Numbered from the stretch's first letter, positions 32,488 to 62,213 are shown. The stretch is 64,000 bases of DNA from Patescibacteria group bacterium (GCA_041660305.1 JBAZWO010000002.1:196739-260738); one strand, 5' to 3'. Numbers and translations are program-made. The notes: a model not told the origin generated them from the letters alone.

Positions 32488-32778
32488 ATGTTAAATACCA
32501 GCCAAGATATTTTATACTTAACTGTAGCTGCTTGTGTAGCAGCTTTTACTGTTACTTTAATCTGGATTATGTACTATATTGGTCAAATTACCAAGCAAAG
32601 TAATGATATGTTAGCTGATTTTAGAAAGAAATTAGAAGAGCTAGATGAAACAGTTAAAACTATTCAAACCAAAGTATCTCATTCTGTAGAAGCGTTATCA
32701 GCTATTAGTGACCAGGTTGCTTATGTAGTAGATTTTATCCGCAACATGTCTAAATCTAAGAAACGCGCGAAAAATTAA
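32488..32778 (+). CDS. Small TM plus coiled-coil protein (DUF948-like)
   Basis: 96 aa, with an N-terminal TM helix, a helical region and a basic tail. Confidence 0.5.
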   Translation: MLNTSQDILYLTVAACVAAFTVTLIWIMYYIGQITKQSNDMLADFRKKLEELDETVKTIQTKVSHSVEALSAISDQVAYVVDFIRNMSKSKKRAKN

Positions 32779-32890
32779 ATCCTACCTCATCCCCCTACCC
32801 CCTTCTCCTAAAAGGAGAAGGGGGTTTTAATTTAAAAAACTCCTCCTTTCCCCTATTAGGGGAAAGGAGGTTGGGAGGATAGAGGTAGAA
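32779..32890. repeat. Composite GC-rich hairpin element (family 1), acting as back-to-back terminators
   Basis: It fills the whole gap between two convergent genes. It opens with TCCTACCTCATCCCC. Hairpin 1 is CCCCCTTCTCCT/AGGAGAAGGGGG (32798-32824) followed by TTTT. Hairpin 2 is CCTCCTTTCCCCT/AGGGGAAAGGAGG (32842-32870), with a T-run on the minus strand. It closes with GAGGTAGA. Confidence 0.7.
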
Positions 32891-33409
32891 TTAATTCTGA
32901 TTCCCTTTCTTAATCGCCTCAATAATTGGTGATGCTGGATTTAAACTTTGCCAAAATGAAATTTGATCACGGTTAATAACAATATAGTTATATGGTTTAT
33001 GAACATCATCTACTAAACGTTTTAGTGATAAACCACTAGCGGTAACATTATTATCATTACTATTTAAATTATCATTTGAATTATCTGCTGTTTCTGTATT
33101 ATCAGCCGCAACATTAGTATTAACATTTGTAGCGGCAGCCTGCGTATCAGTTTGTTGTAAATAATATACATCCGTTAGTACGTATGTATTTATACCATAT
33201 TTGCTAAGACGGCCAAAAAACGTCTGGCCATTAGTTAGTGTTACTGCCTGATAAGTTGCGTTATCAAACAAAGTGCTATAGCGAATAGACAATAACCATA
33301 GTTTAGTAGCTGATAATAATATAATTAAAGCTACTAAGACGTAGGTAAGGCGTAATACACGATTAAGTGTAAACCATTTAGTTTTTACTTTACTTATTTC
33401 TTTTTTCAT
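32891..33409 (-). CDS. Hypothetical membrane-anchored protein
   Basis: 172 aa, with an N-terminal TM helix and an Asn/Asp-rich linker. Confidence 0.5.
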   Translation of the reverse strand: MKKEISKVKTKWFTLNRVLRLTYVLVALIILLSATKLWLLSIRYSTLFDNATYQAVTLTNGQTFFGRLSKYGINTYVLTDVYYLQQTDTQAAATNVNTNVAADNTETADNSNDNLNSNDNNVTASGLSLKRLVDDVHKPYNYIVINRDQISFWQSLNPASPIIEAIKKGNQN

Positions 33410-42637: not shown

Positions 42638-43936
42638 ATGCCTAACAAAACCTACTTTATCTGGCCATTGGGCTGCCAAACTAATAAATCAGACGGCGAA
42701 CGCGTAGCGGCTGTATTGGAGCGTTTAGGTTACAAACGCGTGCCAAACGATGATGAAGCGAATATTGTGGCGGTAATTGCCTGCTCAATTAGGCAATCGG
42801 CCGTAGATAGAATTTACGGCAAATTTAGAAAATGGGGCAGACGACAAAAAAGCGGCGAGCTGACTACCCTACTCACCGGCTGCTTACTGCCAGCTGATAA
42901 AACCAAACTAAATCCAAAGTTTGATTTAATTTTTGCCATTGAGGATTTGCCAAAATTGCCAGAATTATTAGCGCAAACTTCGCTTGAAGAACATGCAAAA
43001 CAAATCGATCAAATGGCTTATTTTGACATTGCACCAATTTCTGAATCACCTTTCCGCGCCTGGGTGCCGATTATGAAAGGCTGTGATAAATTTTGCACGT
43101 ATTGCGCCGTGCCGTATACCCGCGGCCACGAACGCTCTAGGCCATCAGCTGATATTATTAAAGAAGTAAAACGTTTTATCAAACAGGGCTTTAAAGAAAT
43201 TAATTTGCTAGGCCAAAATGTTAACTCGTATGGTTTAGATAAAAAGAATAACGAATTAACTTTTGCTAAGTTGCTAGAACAAGTAGCTAAATTACCGGGA
43301 GATTTTTGGCTACGATTTCACGCGCCGCATCCACGTGATTTTACAGACGATGTAATAGCCGTAATAGCCAAATATCCAAAAATCTGCAAACAAATTAATT
43401 TACCGGCTCAATCCGGCAACAATACCGTATTAAAACGCATGAACCGGCCATATACGTGCACACAGTACTTGACCTTGATTGACATGATTAAAACCGGTAT
43501 TCCAAATGTTTCGCTATCTACTGACATTATTGTTGGTTTTTGCGGTGAAACTGCCAAACAATTTTTGGATACAAAAACTCTCATGCAAAAAGTTAAATAC
43601 GACATGGCTTTTATCGCGCAATATTCTCTGCGCCCCGGCACTGTGGCCGCTAAACGCTTTAAAGATGATGTGCTAGAAGATGCTAAAAAAGACCGAGCAA
43701 TAACGTTAACAAAAATTCTTGAACAAACTTTTTTAGATAATCAAGAAAAAAATATTGGTAAAGTTGATAAAATATTAGTTGAACGATATTCCAAGGATCA
43801 CTGGCTTGGTAGAAATGAGCACTTTATTACCGTGGAATTTTCAGCACCAAAAACCGCCCAATTAATCGGCACATTTCAGCAAGTTAAATTAGAAAAAGTT
43901 GAGCCGTTTAGGTTTAGAGGGAAATTAATTACTTGA
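42638..43936 (+). CDS. miaB: tRNA methylthiotransferase MiaB (radical SAM MTTase)
   Basis: CDKFCTYCAVPYTRG radical-SAM cluster motif, an N-terminal UPF0004 Cys triad region and a TRAM-like C-terminus. Confidence 0.88.
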   Translation: MPNKTYFIWPLGCQTNKSDGERVAAVLERLGYKRVPNDDEANIVAVIACSIRQSAVDRIYGKFRKWGRRQKSGELTTLLTGCLLPADKTKLNPKFDLIFAIEDLPKLPELLAQTSLEEHAKQIDQMAYFDIAPISESPFRAWVPIMKGCDKFCTYCAVPYTRGHERSRPSADIIKEVKRFIKQGFKEINLLGQNVNSYGLDKKNNELTFAKLLEQVAKLPGDFWLRFHAPHPRDFTDDVIAVIAKYPKICKQINLPAQSGNNTVLKRMNRPYTCTQYLTLIDMIKTGIPNVSLSTDIIVGFCGETAKQFLDTKTLMQKVKYDMAFIAQYSLRPGTVAAKRFKDDVLEDAKKDRAITLTKILEQTFLDNQEKNIGKVDKILVERYSKDHWLGRNEHFITVEFSAPKTAQLIGTFQQVKLEKVEPFRFRGKLIT

Positions 43937-44072
43937 AACACAGATGTCGCAGATAGAATCACTGATAATTCTGATAAATACTGATGACACAGATAATTCA
44001 AATACAATTAAATTTAATTAATTGTATTTATCTGTGACATCATGAATTTTATCAGTGTAATCTGTGTTTCAA
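43933..44072. repeat. Family-2 miniature element with perfect 13-bp terminal inverted repeats
   Basis: TTGAAACACAGAT (43933-43945) pairs with ATCTGTGTTTCAA (44060-44072). The interior is an imperfect long palindrome around AATACAATTAA/TTAATTGTATT. It spans the whole miaB/pyrF convergent gap and contains both stop codons. Confidence 0.8.
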
Positions 44073-44827
44073 CGATTCTGTAAATACGCTTCCCAAGCTT
44101 CCTGTCGATATTTTCTAGCTTCACTTGCAGGATCATCTACCTTATAAATTCCACGGCCGACAATGAGCACGTCTGATCCGCCGGCAATGGCTTTGGCTGG
44201 GGTGTTGTATTGTTGCTTTAAGCCGTCTCCCCCGCCGCCAAATTTTACACCGGGCGTGAAGTTGATAAATTTTGGATCATTGATTAATTTTTTGGTGGTA
44301 ATAAATCCAAATACAAAATCATCATATTTTTTCGCCATCTCTATTGATGCTTGAGTGTATTCGCCTTTGGCTAGCGTGCCTTCTGGAGTCATTTCGGCCA
44401 ACAACAACAATCCCCGGCCTTTTGGCAAGCCCACTGCGCTCAAGCCTTCGATAATACCGGGACCCGGCACTGTATGCGCGTTAGTAATATCAGCCCAATC
44501 GACAATATGATAAATGCCTTGGGCGTATTGCATTTGCACGGTATTGCCAATATCGGCAAATTTACGATCTTCAAAAATTAAAAAATTATGTTTCTCTTTT
44601 AGTTTGATTAATTCAGTAACAAAATTTGATGTAAAATCGGTAAGAATATCTATGTGTAATTTGGCCACACATATTTCTGACCCGATTTTATCTAAGATTC
44701 GCAAAATTTCTGCACCAGATGTTAAATCTGCCGCCACTGCTAAATTAGTTTTTTTTTCAATCATTATTTCCAGCAACTTTTTAGCCGTAGGGTTTTTGAC
44801 GTATTGTAAGCGTTGTTCAAGTTTCAT
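44069..44827 (-). CDS. pyrF: Orotidine-5'-phosphate decarboxylase
   Basis: FEDRKFADIGNTV motif and a DxKxxD-type N-terminal region. Confidence 0.9.
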   Translation of the reverse strand: MKLEQRLQYVKNPTAKKLLEIMIEKKTNLAVAADLTSGAEILRILDKIGSEICVAKLHIDILTDFTSNFVTELIKLKEKHNFLIFEDRKFADIGNTVQMQYAQGIYHIVDWADITNAHTVPGPGIIEGLSAVGLPKGRGLLLLAEMTPEGTLAKGEYTQASIEMAKKYDDFVFGFITTKKLINDPKFINFTPGVKFGGGGDGLKQQYNTPAKAIAGGSDVLIVGRGIYKVDDPASEARKYRQEAWEAYLQNR

Positions 44828-44834
44828 AAAATTT

Positions 44835-44894
44835 TACCTCTCCCTCTTTCCCTCTCCTAATAGGAGAGGGATGTCCGAAGGACAGGGTGAGGTA
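44835..44894 (-). repeat. Family-1 GC-rich nested-hairpin element (pyrE-pyrF intercistronic copy)
   Basis: The outer stem is TACCTCTCCC/GGGTGAGGTA. The inner hairpins are CCCTCTCCT-AAT-AGGAGAGGG and TGTCC-GAA-GGACA. Its reverse complement aligns colinearly with 55874-55937. Confidence 0.75.
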
Positions 44895-44897
44895 GTA

Positions 44898-54404: not shown

Positions 54405-55367
54405 TCAGCTTAGTTCAACTAGCTTGTTTTGTTTTAGCCAGTCAATAATTTGTTGTGCTAAATTACTTTTTAATTGTTCTTTTTCTTCCGGTGTAAATGA
54501 GAACGATCCATGTTCTTGCGCGTCTCTAATAAATTCAATTAAGGGTAAGCGATATAAATGGGCTTTAATATTTTCATGACCTGCTAAGCAACCTCTTAGT
54601 TGTTGAGCATCAGCTGAATGATTTCTACTAGTATGAGCATCTGTAATAACCCATTGTTTTTCTGTATTAAGCGCTATTTGTAATTGATCGTTACTTGGAT
54701 GATGTAATAATGTAATACCATGCATACCGGCTTCTTTTAACCAACTAATAATATGACCAGCTACTTCAGCTACTAATTTTTTTACAGCTAGATTATTTTC
54801 CGTAATTTCTTCTCCTGCTCGTCTAATTTCTTTTAGTCTAGAATAGACCGTTGCTAAAAACGGCGGATGTTCTAATAAATGGATATTAGCTAATAAGGCC
54901 ACATGTTTTGGTAATTTTTCTTTTGGGATGTGCGCAATAATTTTTAAAAAAGCCTGCTTAGCGCGCTCTATACTACCTCTAGCCTCATTTCTCTCAGTTT
55001 CAGAAAATATAGTATCTTCAACCGCTGTTGCTAAGCGATCATCCATATTTAAAGAATCCATAGTCATTCTCTCCCTACCATAACTACGTGGAACTGTACT
55101 ATCAGTTATTAACTTAGCTCCATTGCTTAAAAAATGTTTTGTTTCTAACCAATGATGTATTTTATTTATGTCAGTTTTAGGCGGAAAAGCTACTAGACTA
55201 TGAGGTATTTGTCTCTCTCTAAGCACTTTACGAATTACTGCAATGTGCTCGGATAATACCGAATGCTCGCGATAAATAATAATTACTTTAGCGTTTGGTT
55301 CTAACTCACAATGTGGTTCTATTGCTTCATGGTGTAGATCAATTTCATTACGATTATACTGTAACAT
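54405..55367 (-). CDS. Hypothetical His-rich protein, no recognisable domain
   Basis: 320 aa and soluble. It is tightly packed between the MGMT-MPG fusion and gatB. Confidence 0.5.
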   Translation of the reverse strand: MLQYNRNEIDLHHEAIEPHCELEPNAKVIIIYREHSVLSEHIAVIRKVLRERQIPHSLVAFPPKTDINKIHHWLETKHFLSNGAKLITDSTVPRSYGRERMTMDSLNMDDRLATAVEDTIFSETERNEARGSIERAKQAFLKIIAHIPKEKLPKHVALLANIHLLEHPPFLATVYSRLKEIRRAGEEITENNLAVKKLVAEVAGHIISWLKEAGMHGITLLHHPSNDQLQIALNTEKQWVITDAHTSRNHSADAQQLRGCLAGHENIKAHLYRLPLIEFIRDAQEHGSFSFTPEEKEQLKSNLAQQIIDWLKQNKLVELS

Positions 55368-55372
55368 AATAA

Positions 55373-56182
55373 TTATTTTAAAATAAACCGATACGGTTTC
55401 TTAGCCCAAATACCAGCATAGTTTACACCAATTCTTGGTGTTCTTACAATATGTTTAGTGGATATCTTATCTCCCCTATCTTCAATCCACAAACCGGTTT
55501 TTTTATTAGCTATTTTGTTATTAAACGTTTTAGTAATATGAAAATATTTAGTTAATTTGCCAGGACCACTCACCTGGTCTGTGGCTCGAATTAAAATAGC
55601 GGCCGGATAATCTTTTGGCCCCGTTACAATATTTAACATGTAATACATGCCGTATACTAGATACACGTACCAGACGCCGCCGGTACTAAACATTACTTCT
55701 GTACGAGCAGTTCGGCCTTTGGCGGCATGACAAGCTAAATCATGTGGACCATCATAAGCTTCTACTTCAGTAATCAGTCCGGCAATAATTTTGTTACCAA
55801 TTTTGCGGACTAGGTATTTGCCTAAAAGATTAGGTGCTATTTTAAGAACAGGTTGATTGAAAAAACTAACTCCTACCTCATCCCCGCCCTTCGGGCACCC
55901 CTTCTCCTCTGAGGAGAAGGGGAAGGGGGTTGAGGTAAATTCTTGTTCTAACAATTCCCGTTTTTTATTTGTACCTCGATTATACCCACCTAATTTTCCA
56001 TCCGATCGTATTACTCGCTGGCAAGGAATGCTAGGATCGTAATTAGTATGCAAAATATTCCCAACCGCTCGACAAGCTCGCGGCCTACCGGCCAATTTTG
56101 CTACTTCCTGATACGTTAATGTTTTACCTTTAGGAATTTTTTTTACAATATAAAATACTTGCTCACTAAATTTTTTTGTCAT
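55373..56182 (-). CDS. Fusion of an MGMT-type DNA-binding/alkyltransferase domain (PCQRV) with 3-methyladenine DNA glycosylase (MPG/AAG)
   Basis: N-terminal part: YQEVAKLAGRPRACRAVGNIL...IPCQRVIRSDGKLGGY. C-terminal part: LLGKYLVRK...ITEVEAYDGPHDLACHA...VYLVYGMYYMLNIVTG...ILIRA. The 22-aa linker is encoded by a family-1 repeat. Confidence 0.8.
   Translation of the reverse strand: MTKKFSEQVFYIVKKIPKGKTLTYQEVAKLAGRPRACRAVGNILHTNYDPSIPCQRVIRSDGKLGGYNRGTNKKRELLEQEFTSTPFPFSSEEKGCPKGGDEVGVSFFNQPVLKIAPNLLGKYLVRKIGNKIIAGLITEVEAYDGPHDLACHAAKGRTARTEVMFSTGGVWYVYLVYGMYYMLNIVTGPKDYPAAILIRATDQVSGPGKLTKYFHITKTFNNKIANKKTGLWIEDRGDKISTKHIVRTPRIGVNYAGIWAKKPYRFILK
55874..55937 (+). repeat. Family-1 GC-rich nested-hairpin element lying inside a CDS
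   Basis: The outer stem is TACCTCATCCCC/GGGGGTTGAGGTA. The inner hairpins are GCCC-TTC-GGGC and CCCCTTCTCCT-CTG-AGGAGAAGGGG. The leading TCCTACCTCATCCCC is identical to 32780-32794. Confidence 0.8.
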
Positions 56183-56246
56183 AAAACAAAAATATATTTT
56201 CCAAAATTAGGAGTGCTGACCGTGTATTAGCCGTGCACTTTAATAA

Positions 56247-56918
56247 CTATAAGCTAGGGGCTGGTATAATATTTAGCGAAATTATTATTTCAGTTACATC
56301 ATTAAGCGTCATAGGTTGATATGAAAATGAATACATGGCGTCTCCTACCGTAGTGGAGCTATAGCTCATTTGCGATCGATTAACCGCTTTAGCTAATTCT
56401 TGGTCTAACCAATCAGTTAGTGTTGGCTCCACAGTATTTAAAAAAGCTTTTTGTATGGTTGCATCAGGTATTGTATTACGCGTACTAATTGATAGCAATT
56501 TTGTTTGATTGTTTTGCTGGCTCATACTAACAGTTTCTCTAGCATCCAAGGTATCCGCAGTATAAGTTACATAACCTCCATCTCCGGCCGGATAAGCGGA
56601 AAATTTTATATCTAAACCTTGCTGGTTTAGCCAATCCTCCATGTCTGTAGTGGTCATACTTAGTGCGGAAATATTATAAGTTTTATTAGTATTATAATTT
56701 GTAAAAACTGTATTACTATTAGTATTAATTGGTGGGATTAATTCTTGAGCGAAAAAATAACCACCAATAGTTAGAGCTGATAAAATAACTATGATACCAA
56801 AACACCCTAAACAGCTACAGCCGATAATCCAACCGACGGTGTTTTTTTTGGATTCAGGTTTAGATTCTATCGTAGAAACTATTGGCGTGCTAGATGAATT
56901 TTGTGGTTGTGGCTCCAT
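56247..56918 (-). CDS. Hypothetical membrane-anchored protein
   Basis: 223 aa, with one Cys-rich TM helix and an extracytoplasmic domain. Confidence 0.5.
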   Translation of the reverse strand: MEPQPQNSSSTPIVSTIESKPESKKNTVGWIIGCSCLGCFGIIVILSALTIGGYFFAQELIPPINTNSNTVFTNYNTNKTYNISALSMTTTDMEDWLNQQGLDIKFSAYPAGDGGYVTYTADTLDARETVSMSQQNNQTKLLSISTRNTIPDATIQKAFLNTVEPTLTDWLDQELAKAVNRSQMSYSSTTVGDAMYSFSYQPMTLNDVTEIIISLNIIPAPSL

Positions 56919-60312: not shown

Positions 60313-60419
60313 TAACATTAAGCTATCTTTTTTTTCTAATATTCCGCATAATAAGTTAAGCACCAATTTTGGTGTTTTGCTCGTTAAAATTCTGTAAAAA
60401 GAAAAGAAGGGACAAGATC

Positions 60420-61223
60420 ATGAAAAAAATCGAGACACTTCTGGATCAGTTCGGAACCACAATGTCATATCGTCAACTCGTGGCGGAGTTGGAGGATGCA
60501 GACGAAACCACGCGAGCAACCGTGCTTGTGGCGGTTGCTCAAAAACAAGCCGACTTTTGGGCAGAGTCGGCCGAGTACTACCAGGAGGCGCACCCGCGTT
60601 TGCCTGGGATGAAGGCCCACAACAAGTGGGTCTTGAAAGCCGTTGACGCAATCCCTGGTGACCGTGTACTAGACATAGGGTGCGGGTGCGGTCGGTTCGC
60701 CCCGATGTTTCATCGGGGAATACAGTACATGGGAGTTGATCCCTCCGCTGCGATGTTCGAGATCGCACGAAGAGAGCATACTGGCGACAATATCCACTTC
60801 CTTCAGTGGCCAGATAATACGAAATTGCCGTTTGGGGACGGCTATTTCGACATTGTGCTTGCCAACTGGAGCATTGTGTATATGGAGCCCAACAAGCTCC
60901 AAGCCACACTCTTCGATCTCCGCCGGGTCATCCGGCCCGGCGGACGCTTCGTATTGACCGCCATTGTCGCCAACGCCCGTTGGGGGTGGCTGGCGACGGT
61001 CCGGTCCACCTTCTCCAACCCGCTCGAGACATGGCGTCAACGAGACGCTATTCGGCAGGCCATCCCCTTCGGAAGGTCTATCGGCCTGCTGTTCCCCTCC
61101 TACATGGAGTGGGAACTCGACGGACTTGTAACCCAAGCTGGGTTGCGAATCGTCGCGACCCAACATACCCTCTGGGGCCGCAGCTACGGTATAGTAGCAA
61201 AGCGGCTGTCACAGCCACCATAG
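60420..61223 (+). CDS. Class I SAM-dependent methyltransferase, high-GC (foreign composition)
   Basis: VLDIGCGCGRF (motif I), then GDGYFDIVLAN and RPGGRFVL. The ATG at 60420 is preceded by AAGAAGGGA. The ORF-track TTG start at 60369 is in AT-rich flank and is less likely. Confidence 0.85.
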   Translation: MKKIETLLDQFGTTMSYRQLVAELEDADETTRATVLVAVAQKQADFWAESAEYYQEAHPRLPGMKAHNKWVLKAVDAIPGDRVLDIGCGCGRFAPMFHRGIQYMGVDPSAAMFEIARREHTGDNIHFLQWPDNTKLPFGDGYFDIVLANWSIVYMEPNKLQATLFDLRRVIRPGGRFVLTAIVANARWGWLATVRSTFSNPLETWRQRDAIRQAIPFGRSIGLLFPSYMEWELDGLVTQAGLRIVATQHTLWGRSYGIVAKRLSQPP

Positions 61224-61546: not shown

Positions 61547-61762
61547 TTAAATAAATAATTCTTTTGAAAGCTTTGATTGTTTTATAATAGCTAAAAACGT
61601 ACCAATTGGAATTGGTTTGTTTGAACCATGTAATGGCACGGGCACAATAATACCTAATGAGTTTCGATAAATACAATGACTGCCTTTTTGTCTTGCTAGA
61701 TAAAAACCATTACTTTCCAAAACTCGAATAACTTCCCTAACTTTTAGTGGCCGCATAAACAA
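61547..61762 (-). CDS. hicA: HicA mRNA-interferase toxin
   Basis: MRPLKVREVIRVLESNGFYLARQKGSHCIY. The likely ATG start is at 61756, overlapping hicB by about 20 nt. Confidence 0.85.
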   Translation of the reverse strand: MFMRPLKVREVIRVLESNGFYLARQKGSHCIYRNSLGIIVPVPLHGSNKPIPIGTFLAIIKQSKLSKELFI

Positions 61763-62030
61763 TTTCCGCTTGAGCCGGAAGTTTGGCCATAACTTCCGTT
61801 ATAATTGGATAAACTTTATTTTTATGAATAATTATAGATTCTCCTTCATGAGCTAATTCCTCTAACCATAATTGTAATACTTCCTGAGCTTTTGCTTTAG
61901 CTTCTTCAAAATCTCGCCCAAACGTAACACAACCAGGAAAATCCGGAAAAGAAACATTATAACCACCTTCTTCAATTGGATCAAACACGGCTGGATATTG
62001 TACTTTAGTTATTTGCTTCTTCATACTCAT
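61737..62030 (-). CDS. hicB: HicB-family antitoxin (short form, no obvious DNA-binding tail)
   Basis: YPAVFDPIEEGGYNVSFPDFPGCVTFGRDFEEAKAKAQEVLQLWLE (HicB/UPF0150 fold). Confidence 0.8.
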   Translation of the reverse strand: MSMKKQITKVQYPAVFDPIEEGGYNVSFPDFPGCVTFGRDFEEAKAKAQEVLQLWLEELAHEGESIIIHKNKVYPIITEVMAKLPAQAEIVYAATKS

Positions 62031-62067: not shown

Positions 62068-62085
62068 GTCGGGGATACCAGATTT
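62068..62085 (-). repeat. 18-bp duplicate of the tRNA-Pro 3' end (att-like)
   Basis: GTCGGGGATACCAGATTT is identical to 62140-62157 inside tRNA-Pro. Confidence 0.85.
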
Positions 62086-62086
62086 T

Positions 62087-62114
62087 CCGCCAGAGGCGGA
62101 TCCGCCTCTGGCGG
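62087..62114. repeat. 28-bp perfect palindrome centred on GGATCC
   Basis: CCGCCAGAGGCGGATCCGCCTCTGGCGG equals its own reverse complement. Confidence 0.9.
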
Positions 62115-62137
62115 AGAACTGCCTAAATGTGCTTGAT

Positions 62138-62213
62138 TGGTCGGGGATACCAGATTTGAACTGGTGACCTCACGGTCCCGAACCGTGCGCGCTACCAACT
62201 GCGCTAATCCCCG
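62138..62213 (-). tRNA. tRNA-Pro (anticodon CGG), CCA encoded
   Basis: The reverse complement is CGGGGATTAGCGCAGTTGGTAGCGCGCACGGTTCGGGACCGTGAGGTCACCAGTTCAAATCTGGTATCCCCGACCA. It is a 76-nt cloverleaf with anticodon loop TTCGGGA. Confidence 0.9.

Follow-up and report, generated by a model that had tools for sequence, protein, structure and literature searches.

A palindromic repeat of a dispersed MITE-like family encodes the linker between two DNA-repair domains in a Patescibacteria protein

Introduction

In-frame palindromic repeats are already known in kind, as the RPEs of Rickettsia, as intragenic REPs and as MITEs. RPEs are selfish palindromes of ~100-150 bp that are translated in frame within housekeeping genes (Ogata et al. 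2000, as summarised in PMC10969869). The element described here resembles them in being a short palindrome carried in frame at a permissive site and tolerated there, but RPEs are Rickettsia-specific and encode conserved peptides (PMC10969869), while our element is a GC-rich repeat of 64 nt in an AT-rich Patescibacteria genome. It is set apart from RPE families 1-10 by size and host only. In contrast to the RPEs, it occupies the exact junction of two domains, and the continuity of the reading frame across that junction depends on it.

REPs are single hairpins of 20-40 bp, tagged with GTAG/CGTC and often linked to RAYTs (Di Nocera et al. 2013, PMC3733652). They lie mostly between convergent or co-directional ORFs, for which their termini provide stop codons, and many of the intragenic ones are found in replication and repair genes, where they are presumed to be neutral in linkers or loops (PMC3733652). 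REPs share with our element the character of small GC-rich palindromes, some copies of which lie inside ORFs (PMC3733652). Unlike them, the element nests three stems and has terminal inverted repeats of 10-12 bp and TA flanks. GTAG occurs in it only as GAG-GTAG across the outer terminus, and is absent from many of the external copies. With three nested stems instead of a single tagged hairpin, it is not a GTAG-tagged REP.

Bacterial MITEs (ERIC, Correia, Coxiella QMITE1 and those of Anabaena) occasionally give rise to in-frame fusions (PMC10969869, PMC5896051). Like our element, they are non-autonomous and dispersed, have terminal inverted repeats and are sometimes intragenic with an open frame. 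The element is short, has no transposase coding, carries terminal inverted repeats and is present in three copies in 64 kb, all of which are MITE features; however, most MITEs are far longer, the conservation of its sequence spans at least five phyla, and neither a parent insertion sequence nor a transposase is known for it. AT-rich fungal mitochondrial genomes harbor GC clusters and double-hairpin elements that are GC-rich, mobile and sometimes in frame in genes. These too are GC-rich hairpins in an AT-rich genome, but they are organellar, eukaryotic and unrelated in sequence.

Here we describe the element in a window of 64,000 nucleotides (the whole stretch of Patescibacteria DNA that was analysed, to whose first letter all positions refer). 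What is new is its occurrence in Patescibacteria, its part in defining a domain junction and the cross-phylum family, which is apparently undescribed.

Results

The repeat is translated between an MGMT-type and an MPG domain

The only long ORF at the element is 55373-56182 on the minus strand (Table 1). Pfam assigned PF01035 (DNA_binding_1) to residues 5-81 of its product (E 1e-27, 96 bits) and PF02245 to residues 106-269 (E 4e-50, 170 bits), and NCBIfam agreed with these domain calls, TIGR00567 scoring 152.7 bits and exceeding its cut-off. An identical protein is recorded for a Patescibacteria MAG. As the original prediction had it, the element lies inside this ORF and is translated as the inter-domain linker: codons 82-104 read FTSTPFPFSSEEKGCPKGGDEVG, and the peptide across the hairpin-encoded part is FTSTPFPFSSEEK. 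The claim that the element carries no stop codon in the frame used was likewise correct. On each strand one of the three frames crosses the element free of stops, and the minus strand uses its open one; the remaining two minus-strand frames terminate at the element's own 3' end, TGAGGTAG. A separate MPG start is ruled out, there being no in-frame ATG, GTG or TTG until Met164, so the MPG domain can be produced only within the fusion.

Table 1. Coordinates of the fusion ORF, its parts and the repeat copies in the window
Feature	Position	Strand	Description and basis
Fusion ORF (MGMT-type + linker + MPG)	55373..56182	-	269 aa; ORF list, Pfam, NCBIfam
MGMT domain, aa 1-81	55940..56182	-	Pfam, alignment
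Element-encoded codons, aa 82-104	55871..55939	-	23 codons, repeat + 5 flanking bases
MPG domain, aa 105-269, and stop codon	55373..55870	-	ORF translation, Pfam
Core palindromic element	55874..55937	.	64 nt; fold, covariance model
Small inner hairpin	55886..55896	.	GCCC-TTC-GGGC; from folds
Long inner hairpin	55898..55922	.	CCCCTTCTCCT-CTG-AGGAGAAGGGG, 11 bp
Copy B	32781..32889	.	109 nt; 5' terminus as in core element
Copy C	44835..44894	. (reverse orientation)	R1 83 bits

The linker had been placed exactly between the natural ends of the two domains. Its position stood, but the ends are not fully natural. Stand-alone MGMT proteins are 81-96 aa long (modal 84 aa) and have tails of 2-5 residues after LLxxE, and stand-alone MPG proteins begin with M(K/R)K(V/I)L-xxx-FF or MILKQKFF. 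Compared with these homologues, the element-encoded residues replace 2-5 C-terminal residues of MGMT and 3-4 N-terminal residues of MPG. AlphaFold2, run with a 109-sequence alignment, gave a model with a mean pLDDT of 93.9, which falls below 50 only at residues 86-95 and exceeds 93 in the MPG domain. In this model the final helix of MGMT is prolonged by residues 82-84, and the first MPG strand consists of residues 101-102, which replace the native K-V-L. The middle of the element is thus predicted to be a flexible linker, with its ends structurally co-opted.

The MPG part is a full-length PF02245 domain in which the invariant core and catalytic-region residues are conserved in the alignment. 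In the MGMT part the active-site motif is PCQRV (residues 53-57; window 56012-56026) rather than the usual PCHRV, so that the acceptor Cys is kept and the charge-relay His is lost. Among 68 aligned homologues the motif is PCHR in 67 and PCYR in one, PCQR being found in none, and because PCQRV is unique in this set the transferase activity of the domain is uncertain. The N-terminal Ogt domain is absent from this part of the protein, as it is from other Patescibacteria MGMT proteins.

Sequencing through GC-rich hairpins is difficult in an AT-rich genome, and the source is a metagenome-assembled genome; an error of assembly or consensus at this hairpin-rich spot could have turned two genes, or a pseudogene, into one continuous ORF. 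We consider this very improbable. A separately assembled MEGAHIT contig from ENA, 29.8 kb long, matches the window at 100% identity through 10,810 nt that include the element, although the two assemblies (the window and this contig) may share reads, the exact protein is present on three contigs, and the frame used is the sole open one and precisely joins two full domains.

The element has two further copies in the window

The core palindrome (TACCTCA...TGAGGTA) reads TACCTCATCCCC-GCCCTTCGGGC-A-CCCCTTCTCCT-CTG-AGGAGAAGGGG-AAGGGGGTTGAGGTA. A nested-hairpin element of roughly 67 bp had been proposed here; the sequence is at the site as proposed, and the length of its core is 64 nt. Its GC content is 62%, against ~35% for the window. 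The termini, TACCTCATCCCC and GGGGGTTGAGGTA, form an outer stem with TA at either end, which surrounds the 4-bp and 11-bp hairpins. The folding energy of the plus strand is -44.5 kcal/mol; in the mRNA sense the element folds with -43.8 kcal/mol (z = -4.8), and none of 200 shuffles was as stable.

A covariance model, R1, was built from ten family members. It scored the core element with 68.9 bits (E 4e-16), and its matches in the 64-kb window (E below 1e-5) are these three copies only, all three with TA at both ends. The leading 15-mer and the long hairpin arms had been said to be identical only to the copy at 32780, and the window search bore this out. The 15-mer TCCTACCTCATCCCC was found at 55871 and 32780 only, and the long arms only at 55898-55922 and 32799-32823, for both of which the shuffle expectation is 0; chance similarity between the copies is ruled out on this ground.

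Copy B exists where it had been predicted, but it extends over 32781-32889 and not over the 45 nt of 32780-32824. Its outer stem closes at ~32874-32889 and encloses two 13-bp terminator-like hairpins. The copy fills the gap between the convergent genes 32488-32778 (+) and 32891-33409 (-), and both inner hairpins score as terminators (GC hairpin plus T-run) facing these genes. Copy C has the three-stem architecture in reverse complement, as predicted, with the stem change GCCC/GGGC to GTCC/GGAC compensated. It takes up the whole gap of 70 nt (region 44827-44897) that separates two co-directional genes on the minus strand, and no terminator-like site was found at it. The ATG of the downstream gene, at 44827, is preceded at 7-8 nt by the 3' arm of the copy, GGAGAGGTA, the sole Shine-Dalgarno-like sequence before this gene, so that the repeat may provide the gene's ribosome-binding site. 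Copies B and C both sit at gene boundaries.

The window holds other palindromic sequences. At 62083-62118, adjoining a tRNA gene (62141-62213), there is a near-perfect 18+18-bp palindrome, TTTTCCGCCAGAGGCGGA/TCCGCCTCTGGCGGAGAA, with -38 kcal/mol including its flanks and with a sequence unrelated to the element family. The AT-rich stretch 43933-44072 contains several palindromes that overlap, as well as imperfect inverted repeats of 49 nt with 73% complementarity. Near the same tRNA lies a gene for a 284-aa SAM-methyltransferase-like protein (60369-61223, +), which at 52-65% GC versus ~33% for the genome looks like recent foreign DNA, and beside this gene ORF translations alone suggest a HicA/HicB-like toxin-antitoxin pair (61547-62030, -).

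Related repeats are dispersed in several phyla

Pattern scans found 21 loci in a collection with one genome per species (L004-L023 among them) and 57 loci in metagenome contigs (L024-L077 among them). The patterns demanded TA flanks in these external copies, but more than 30 loci share more than the imposed pattern, namely TACCTCACCCC ... CCCTCTCCT-nnn-AGGAGAGGG ... GGGGTGAGGTA. A scan of viral contigs gave three matches, including L090, which duplicates the non-family locus L050. By record title the hosts are Armatimonadota, Bacteroidota (several families), Cloacimonadota, Gracilibacteria and Chromatiales.

The copies are 45 to 109 nt long, and the external ones carry one or two inner hairpins and obtained R1 E values from 1e-4 down to 1e-18. 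In the family consensus the termini are TA-CCTCAYCCC...GGGRTGAGG-TA and the inner hairpins GYCC/GGRC and CCCYTCTCCT/AGGAGARGGG; the outer stem TACCTCAYCCC/GGGRTGAGGTA is paired in all copies. The small hairpin of the core, GCCC-TTC-GGGC, is compensated as GTCC-YYC-GGAC in copy C and at L026, L048 and L023, and the arms of the long hairpin recur in copy B (32799-32823) and at a Bacteroidales locus (L020). L048 and L026 are near-identical to copy C. By tblastx, no genes are common to the window and the loci with near-identical elements, so these provide no orthologous sites for comparison; as near-identical copies in unrelated contexts they lend only indirect support to mobility. A full-text literature search returned no relevant paper on the terminal or hairpin sequences, and the cross-phylum nested-hairpin family is apparently undescribed. 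A 52-aa concatenated query of element translations retrieved no candidate in a peptide search.

These data bear on whether the hairpin has a role at the RNA level, as a ribosome pause between the domains, as a site of processing or RNase III cleavage, or as a partial terminator that yields a transcript of MGMT only, with the peptide incidental. The structure in the mRNA is very stable, its stems are kept or compensated between copies, the equivalent hairpin and T-run in copy B resemble a terminator, and direct reading of the sequence finds Shine-Dalgarno-like purine arms (AGGAG, GAGGT). We nevertheless regard such a role as improbable. With Rfam 15 at gathering thresholds the whole window yielded two tRNAs only, and there is no Rfam family match for the element: at permissive E-values, 55800-56000 gave chance miRNA-like hairpin matches, the best at the element scoring 20.6 bits against a gathering threshold of 63. 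An intragenic terminator is ruled out, as no site was found at 55000-56600 on either strand, and fused homologues of the protein do without any such hairpin. In the family the stems are conserved in sequence and the loops vary, which is the pattern typical of DNA palindromic repeats rather than of structured RNAs. The hairpin is one member of a dispersed family of short palindromic repeats that are MITE-like and non-autonomous.

Other repeats are translated in frame

Two further members of the family were found inside genes. One (L034:3111-3181) is in frame in the linker that joins the catalytic and DALR domains of a cysteinyl-tRNA synthetase; excising 69 of its 71 nt restores the CysRS ORF (GWNDNSPL) and excising all 71 breaks it. 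The other, of 57 nt (L077:167-223), is in frame within the glutaminase/GATase domain of CarA. It misfits a TA duplication, and its site is a composite insertion. The same CarA ORF contains an in-frame tandem repeat, SETAKQRN, in three copies, in addition to the composite insertion of ~50 aa.

In-frame repeats also occur in homologues of the fusion protein. P0098 (on L086), the closest stand-alone MPG, from Patescibacteria, has two in-frame hairpin insertions, both perfect (L086:4298-4360 and L086:4415-4477), with a 19-bp stem (-37.9 kcal/mol) and a GC-rich 7-bp stem. In the fused homologue P0009 the linker (L002:1650-1740) is made of three copies of CAACCTCAAARGTCG and one inverted copy, in two frames, that is, of a different DNA repeat at the matching inter-domain site. 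Translated palindromes are recurrent in the genomes of the CysRS, CarA, P0098 and P0009 cases, in agreement with the published record on RPEs, ERIC and QMITE1 (PMC10969869) and on intragenic REPs (PMC3733652).

MGMT-MPG fusions without the element are common in Patescibacteria

Among the 120 best MPG homologues there are about 29 MGMT-MPG fusions (P0002-P0028, P0032 and P0052), which come from Patescibacteria. Their domain order matches that of the window protein, with one reversed, and they share with it the pairing of alkylation-repair domains. Their linkers, of 0 to ~45 aa, are absent or unrelated to the element. Fused orthologues with an unrelated linker had been named in advance as evidence against the repeat as the agent of fusion, and taken literally they exist, some 29 of them within the phylum; it follows that the element is not required for MGMT-MPG fusion, and also that such fusions are evidently viable.

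The window protein differs from these fusions in that neither of its domains groups with them. Its MGMT domain is 70-78% identical to stand-alone proteins of 81-96 aa and at most 68% identical to fused ones; for the MPG domain, stand-alone proteins are as near as the best fused protein, and the next homologue is 59% identical. In NJ trees, which are weakly resolved, the fused proteins fall into at least nine groups, and a fused protein entered the sister clade of the query in 28 of 200 bootstraps (14%) for MPG and in 17 of 200 (8.5%) for MGMT. Weak as the NJ trees are, this suggests that the fusion is independent and lineage-specific. A comparison with orthologous loci, to see whether the two genes are separate there, had been suggested as a check; in the seven genomes from which the nearest stand-alone mgmt or mpg genes come, the two are nowhere adjacent.

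The reading frame of the fusion depends on the element

Deleting 62 nt (one TA kept) or all 64 nt puts the two domains out of frame, and the frame continuity of the fusion thus depends on the element. When the element is excised as if it had duplicated a TA, the mgmt ORF ends in ...LLEQEFRS and a TAG stop, at 84 aa, the modal size of the stand-alone proteins, and with a tail typical of them. In the +1 frame the excised sequence gives a stop followed by NKNLGVSFFNQP or NKNLGVSFFNQPV, which matches the N-terminus of stand-alone MPG proteins, (M)K(V)L-xxx-FF, but for the start codon, which is missing from the reconstructed mpg frame.

From these reconstructions a route to the fusion can be proposed. 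The element would have inserted at a TA where the end of an mgmt gene of 84 codons and the beginning of mpg overlapped briefly, the empty site being ...GAACA(A/T)GAATT-TA-GGAGTTAGT... A net 62 nt would amount to a frame shift of +2, with a single stop-free frame in the orientation of insertion, and translation would then run from mgmt through the element into the mpg frame to give one protein of 269 aa. PFPFSSEEKG, the middle of the element peptide, would serve as a disordered linker, and the ends of the peptide would replace the last turn of the MGMT helix and the first MPG beta-strand. The mpg ATG would have been lost afterwards, a single T-to-A substitution in the AAG codon being enough for this. 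That a TA target was duplicated, that two genes existed ancestrally, that the mpg ATG was lost later and that the fusion is functional are our inferences.

Several points weigh against this route. An empty site was not found. In an AT-rich genome a stop within three codons after excision is likely by chance, as is a hydrophobic residue at an xTA codon, and of the other translated copies the one informative case (L034) fits a TA duplication and L077 does not. The main rival is a late insertion, in which the gene was already fused and the repeat entered its short linker, with an indel restoring the frame and the native linker being lost. A pre-existing fusion is a fair prior, element-free fusions being common. 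With 29 of the 120 best MPG homologues fused through linkers of 0-45 aa, the junction tolerates nearly anything; P0009 shows that another DNA repeat can occupy the matching site in two frames, intragenic palindromic repeats favor flexible linkers, often in repair genes (PMC3733652), and the seven genomes offer no unfused adjacent genes. A clean insertion of 62 or 64 nt, however, is never in frame, so a late insertion requires a second event at the site; moreover, neither domain has an affinity to the fused clades, and the native linker residues are gone from both sides. We think a late insertion possible but on the whole doubtful.

Discussion

We tentatively prefer an origin of the fusion by insertion of the MITE-like element where two overlapping ORFs met, a reading that we hold to be quite plausible if somewhat short of probable. 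The original prediction was that the element had welded two adjacent genes into one ORF. The frame arithmetic, the repeat-derived linker and the affinity of both domains to stand-alone proteins agree with it, and adjacency of the two genes was found in none of the seven genomes. Simple read-through of an intercistronic element is ruled out: no stop or start remnant and no native gene ends are left, and a start codon is lacking in the reconstructed mpg frame.

The MGMT-MPG, CysRS and CarA cases invite the wider and rather unlikely conjecture that such elements, by virtue of their single stop-free frame, act as a general rivet, welding neighboring or overlapping ORFs into multidomain proteins and seeding linkers in housekeeping enzymes. 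On this conjecture the elements would form an undescribed, horizontally spreading family of TA-flanked nested-hairpin MITEs common to Patescibacteria, Bacteroidota, Armatimonadota, Cloacimonadota and Gammaproteobacteria. Were the rivet conjecture true, streamlined genomes would have in these elements a source from which domain fusions arise repeatedly.

A repeat that sets the frame joining two enzymes would show how two genes can become one bifunctional protein in a single step. In the tiny, gene-dense genomes of Patescibacteria such repeats lie almost exclusively where genes or protein domains meet, and the presence of the repeat in several phyla points to an uncharacterised mobile family. 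Repeat-encoded linkers are to be expected, by annotators and by structure predictors alike, in the proteins of metagenome-assembled genomes.
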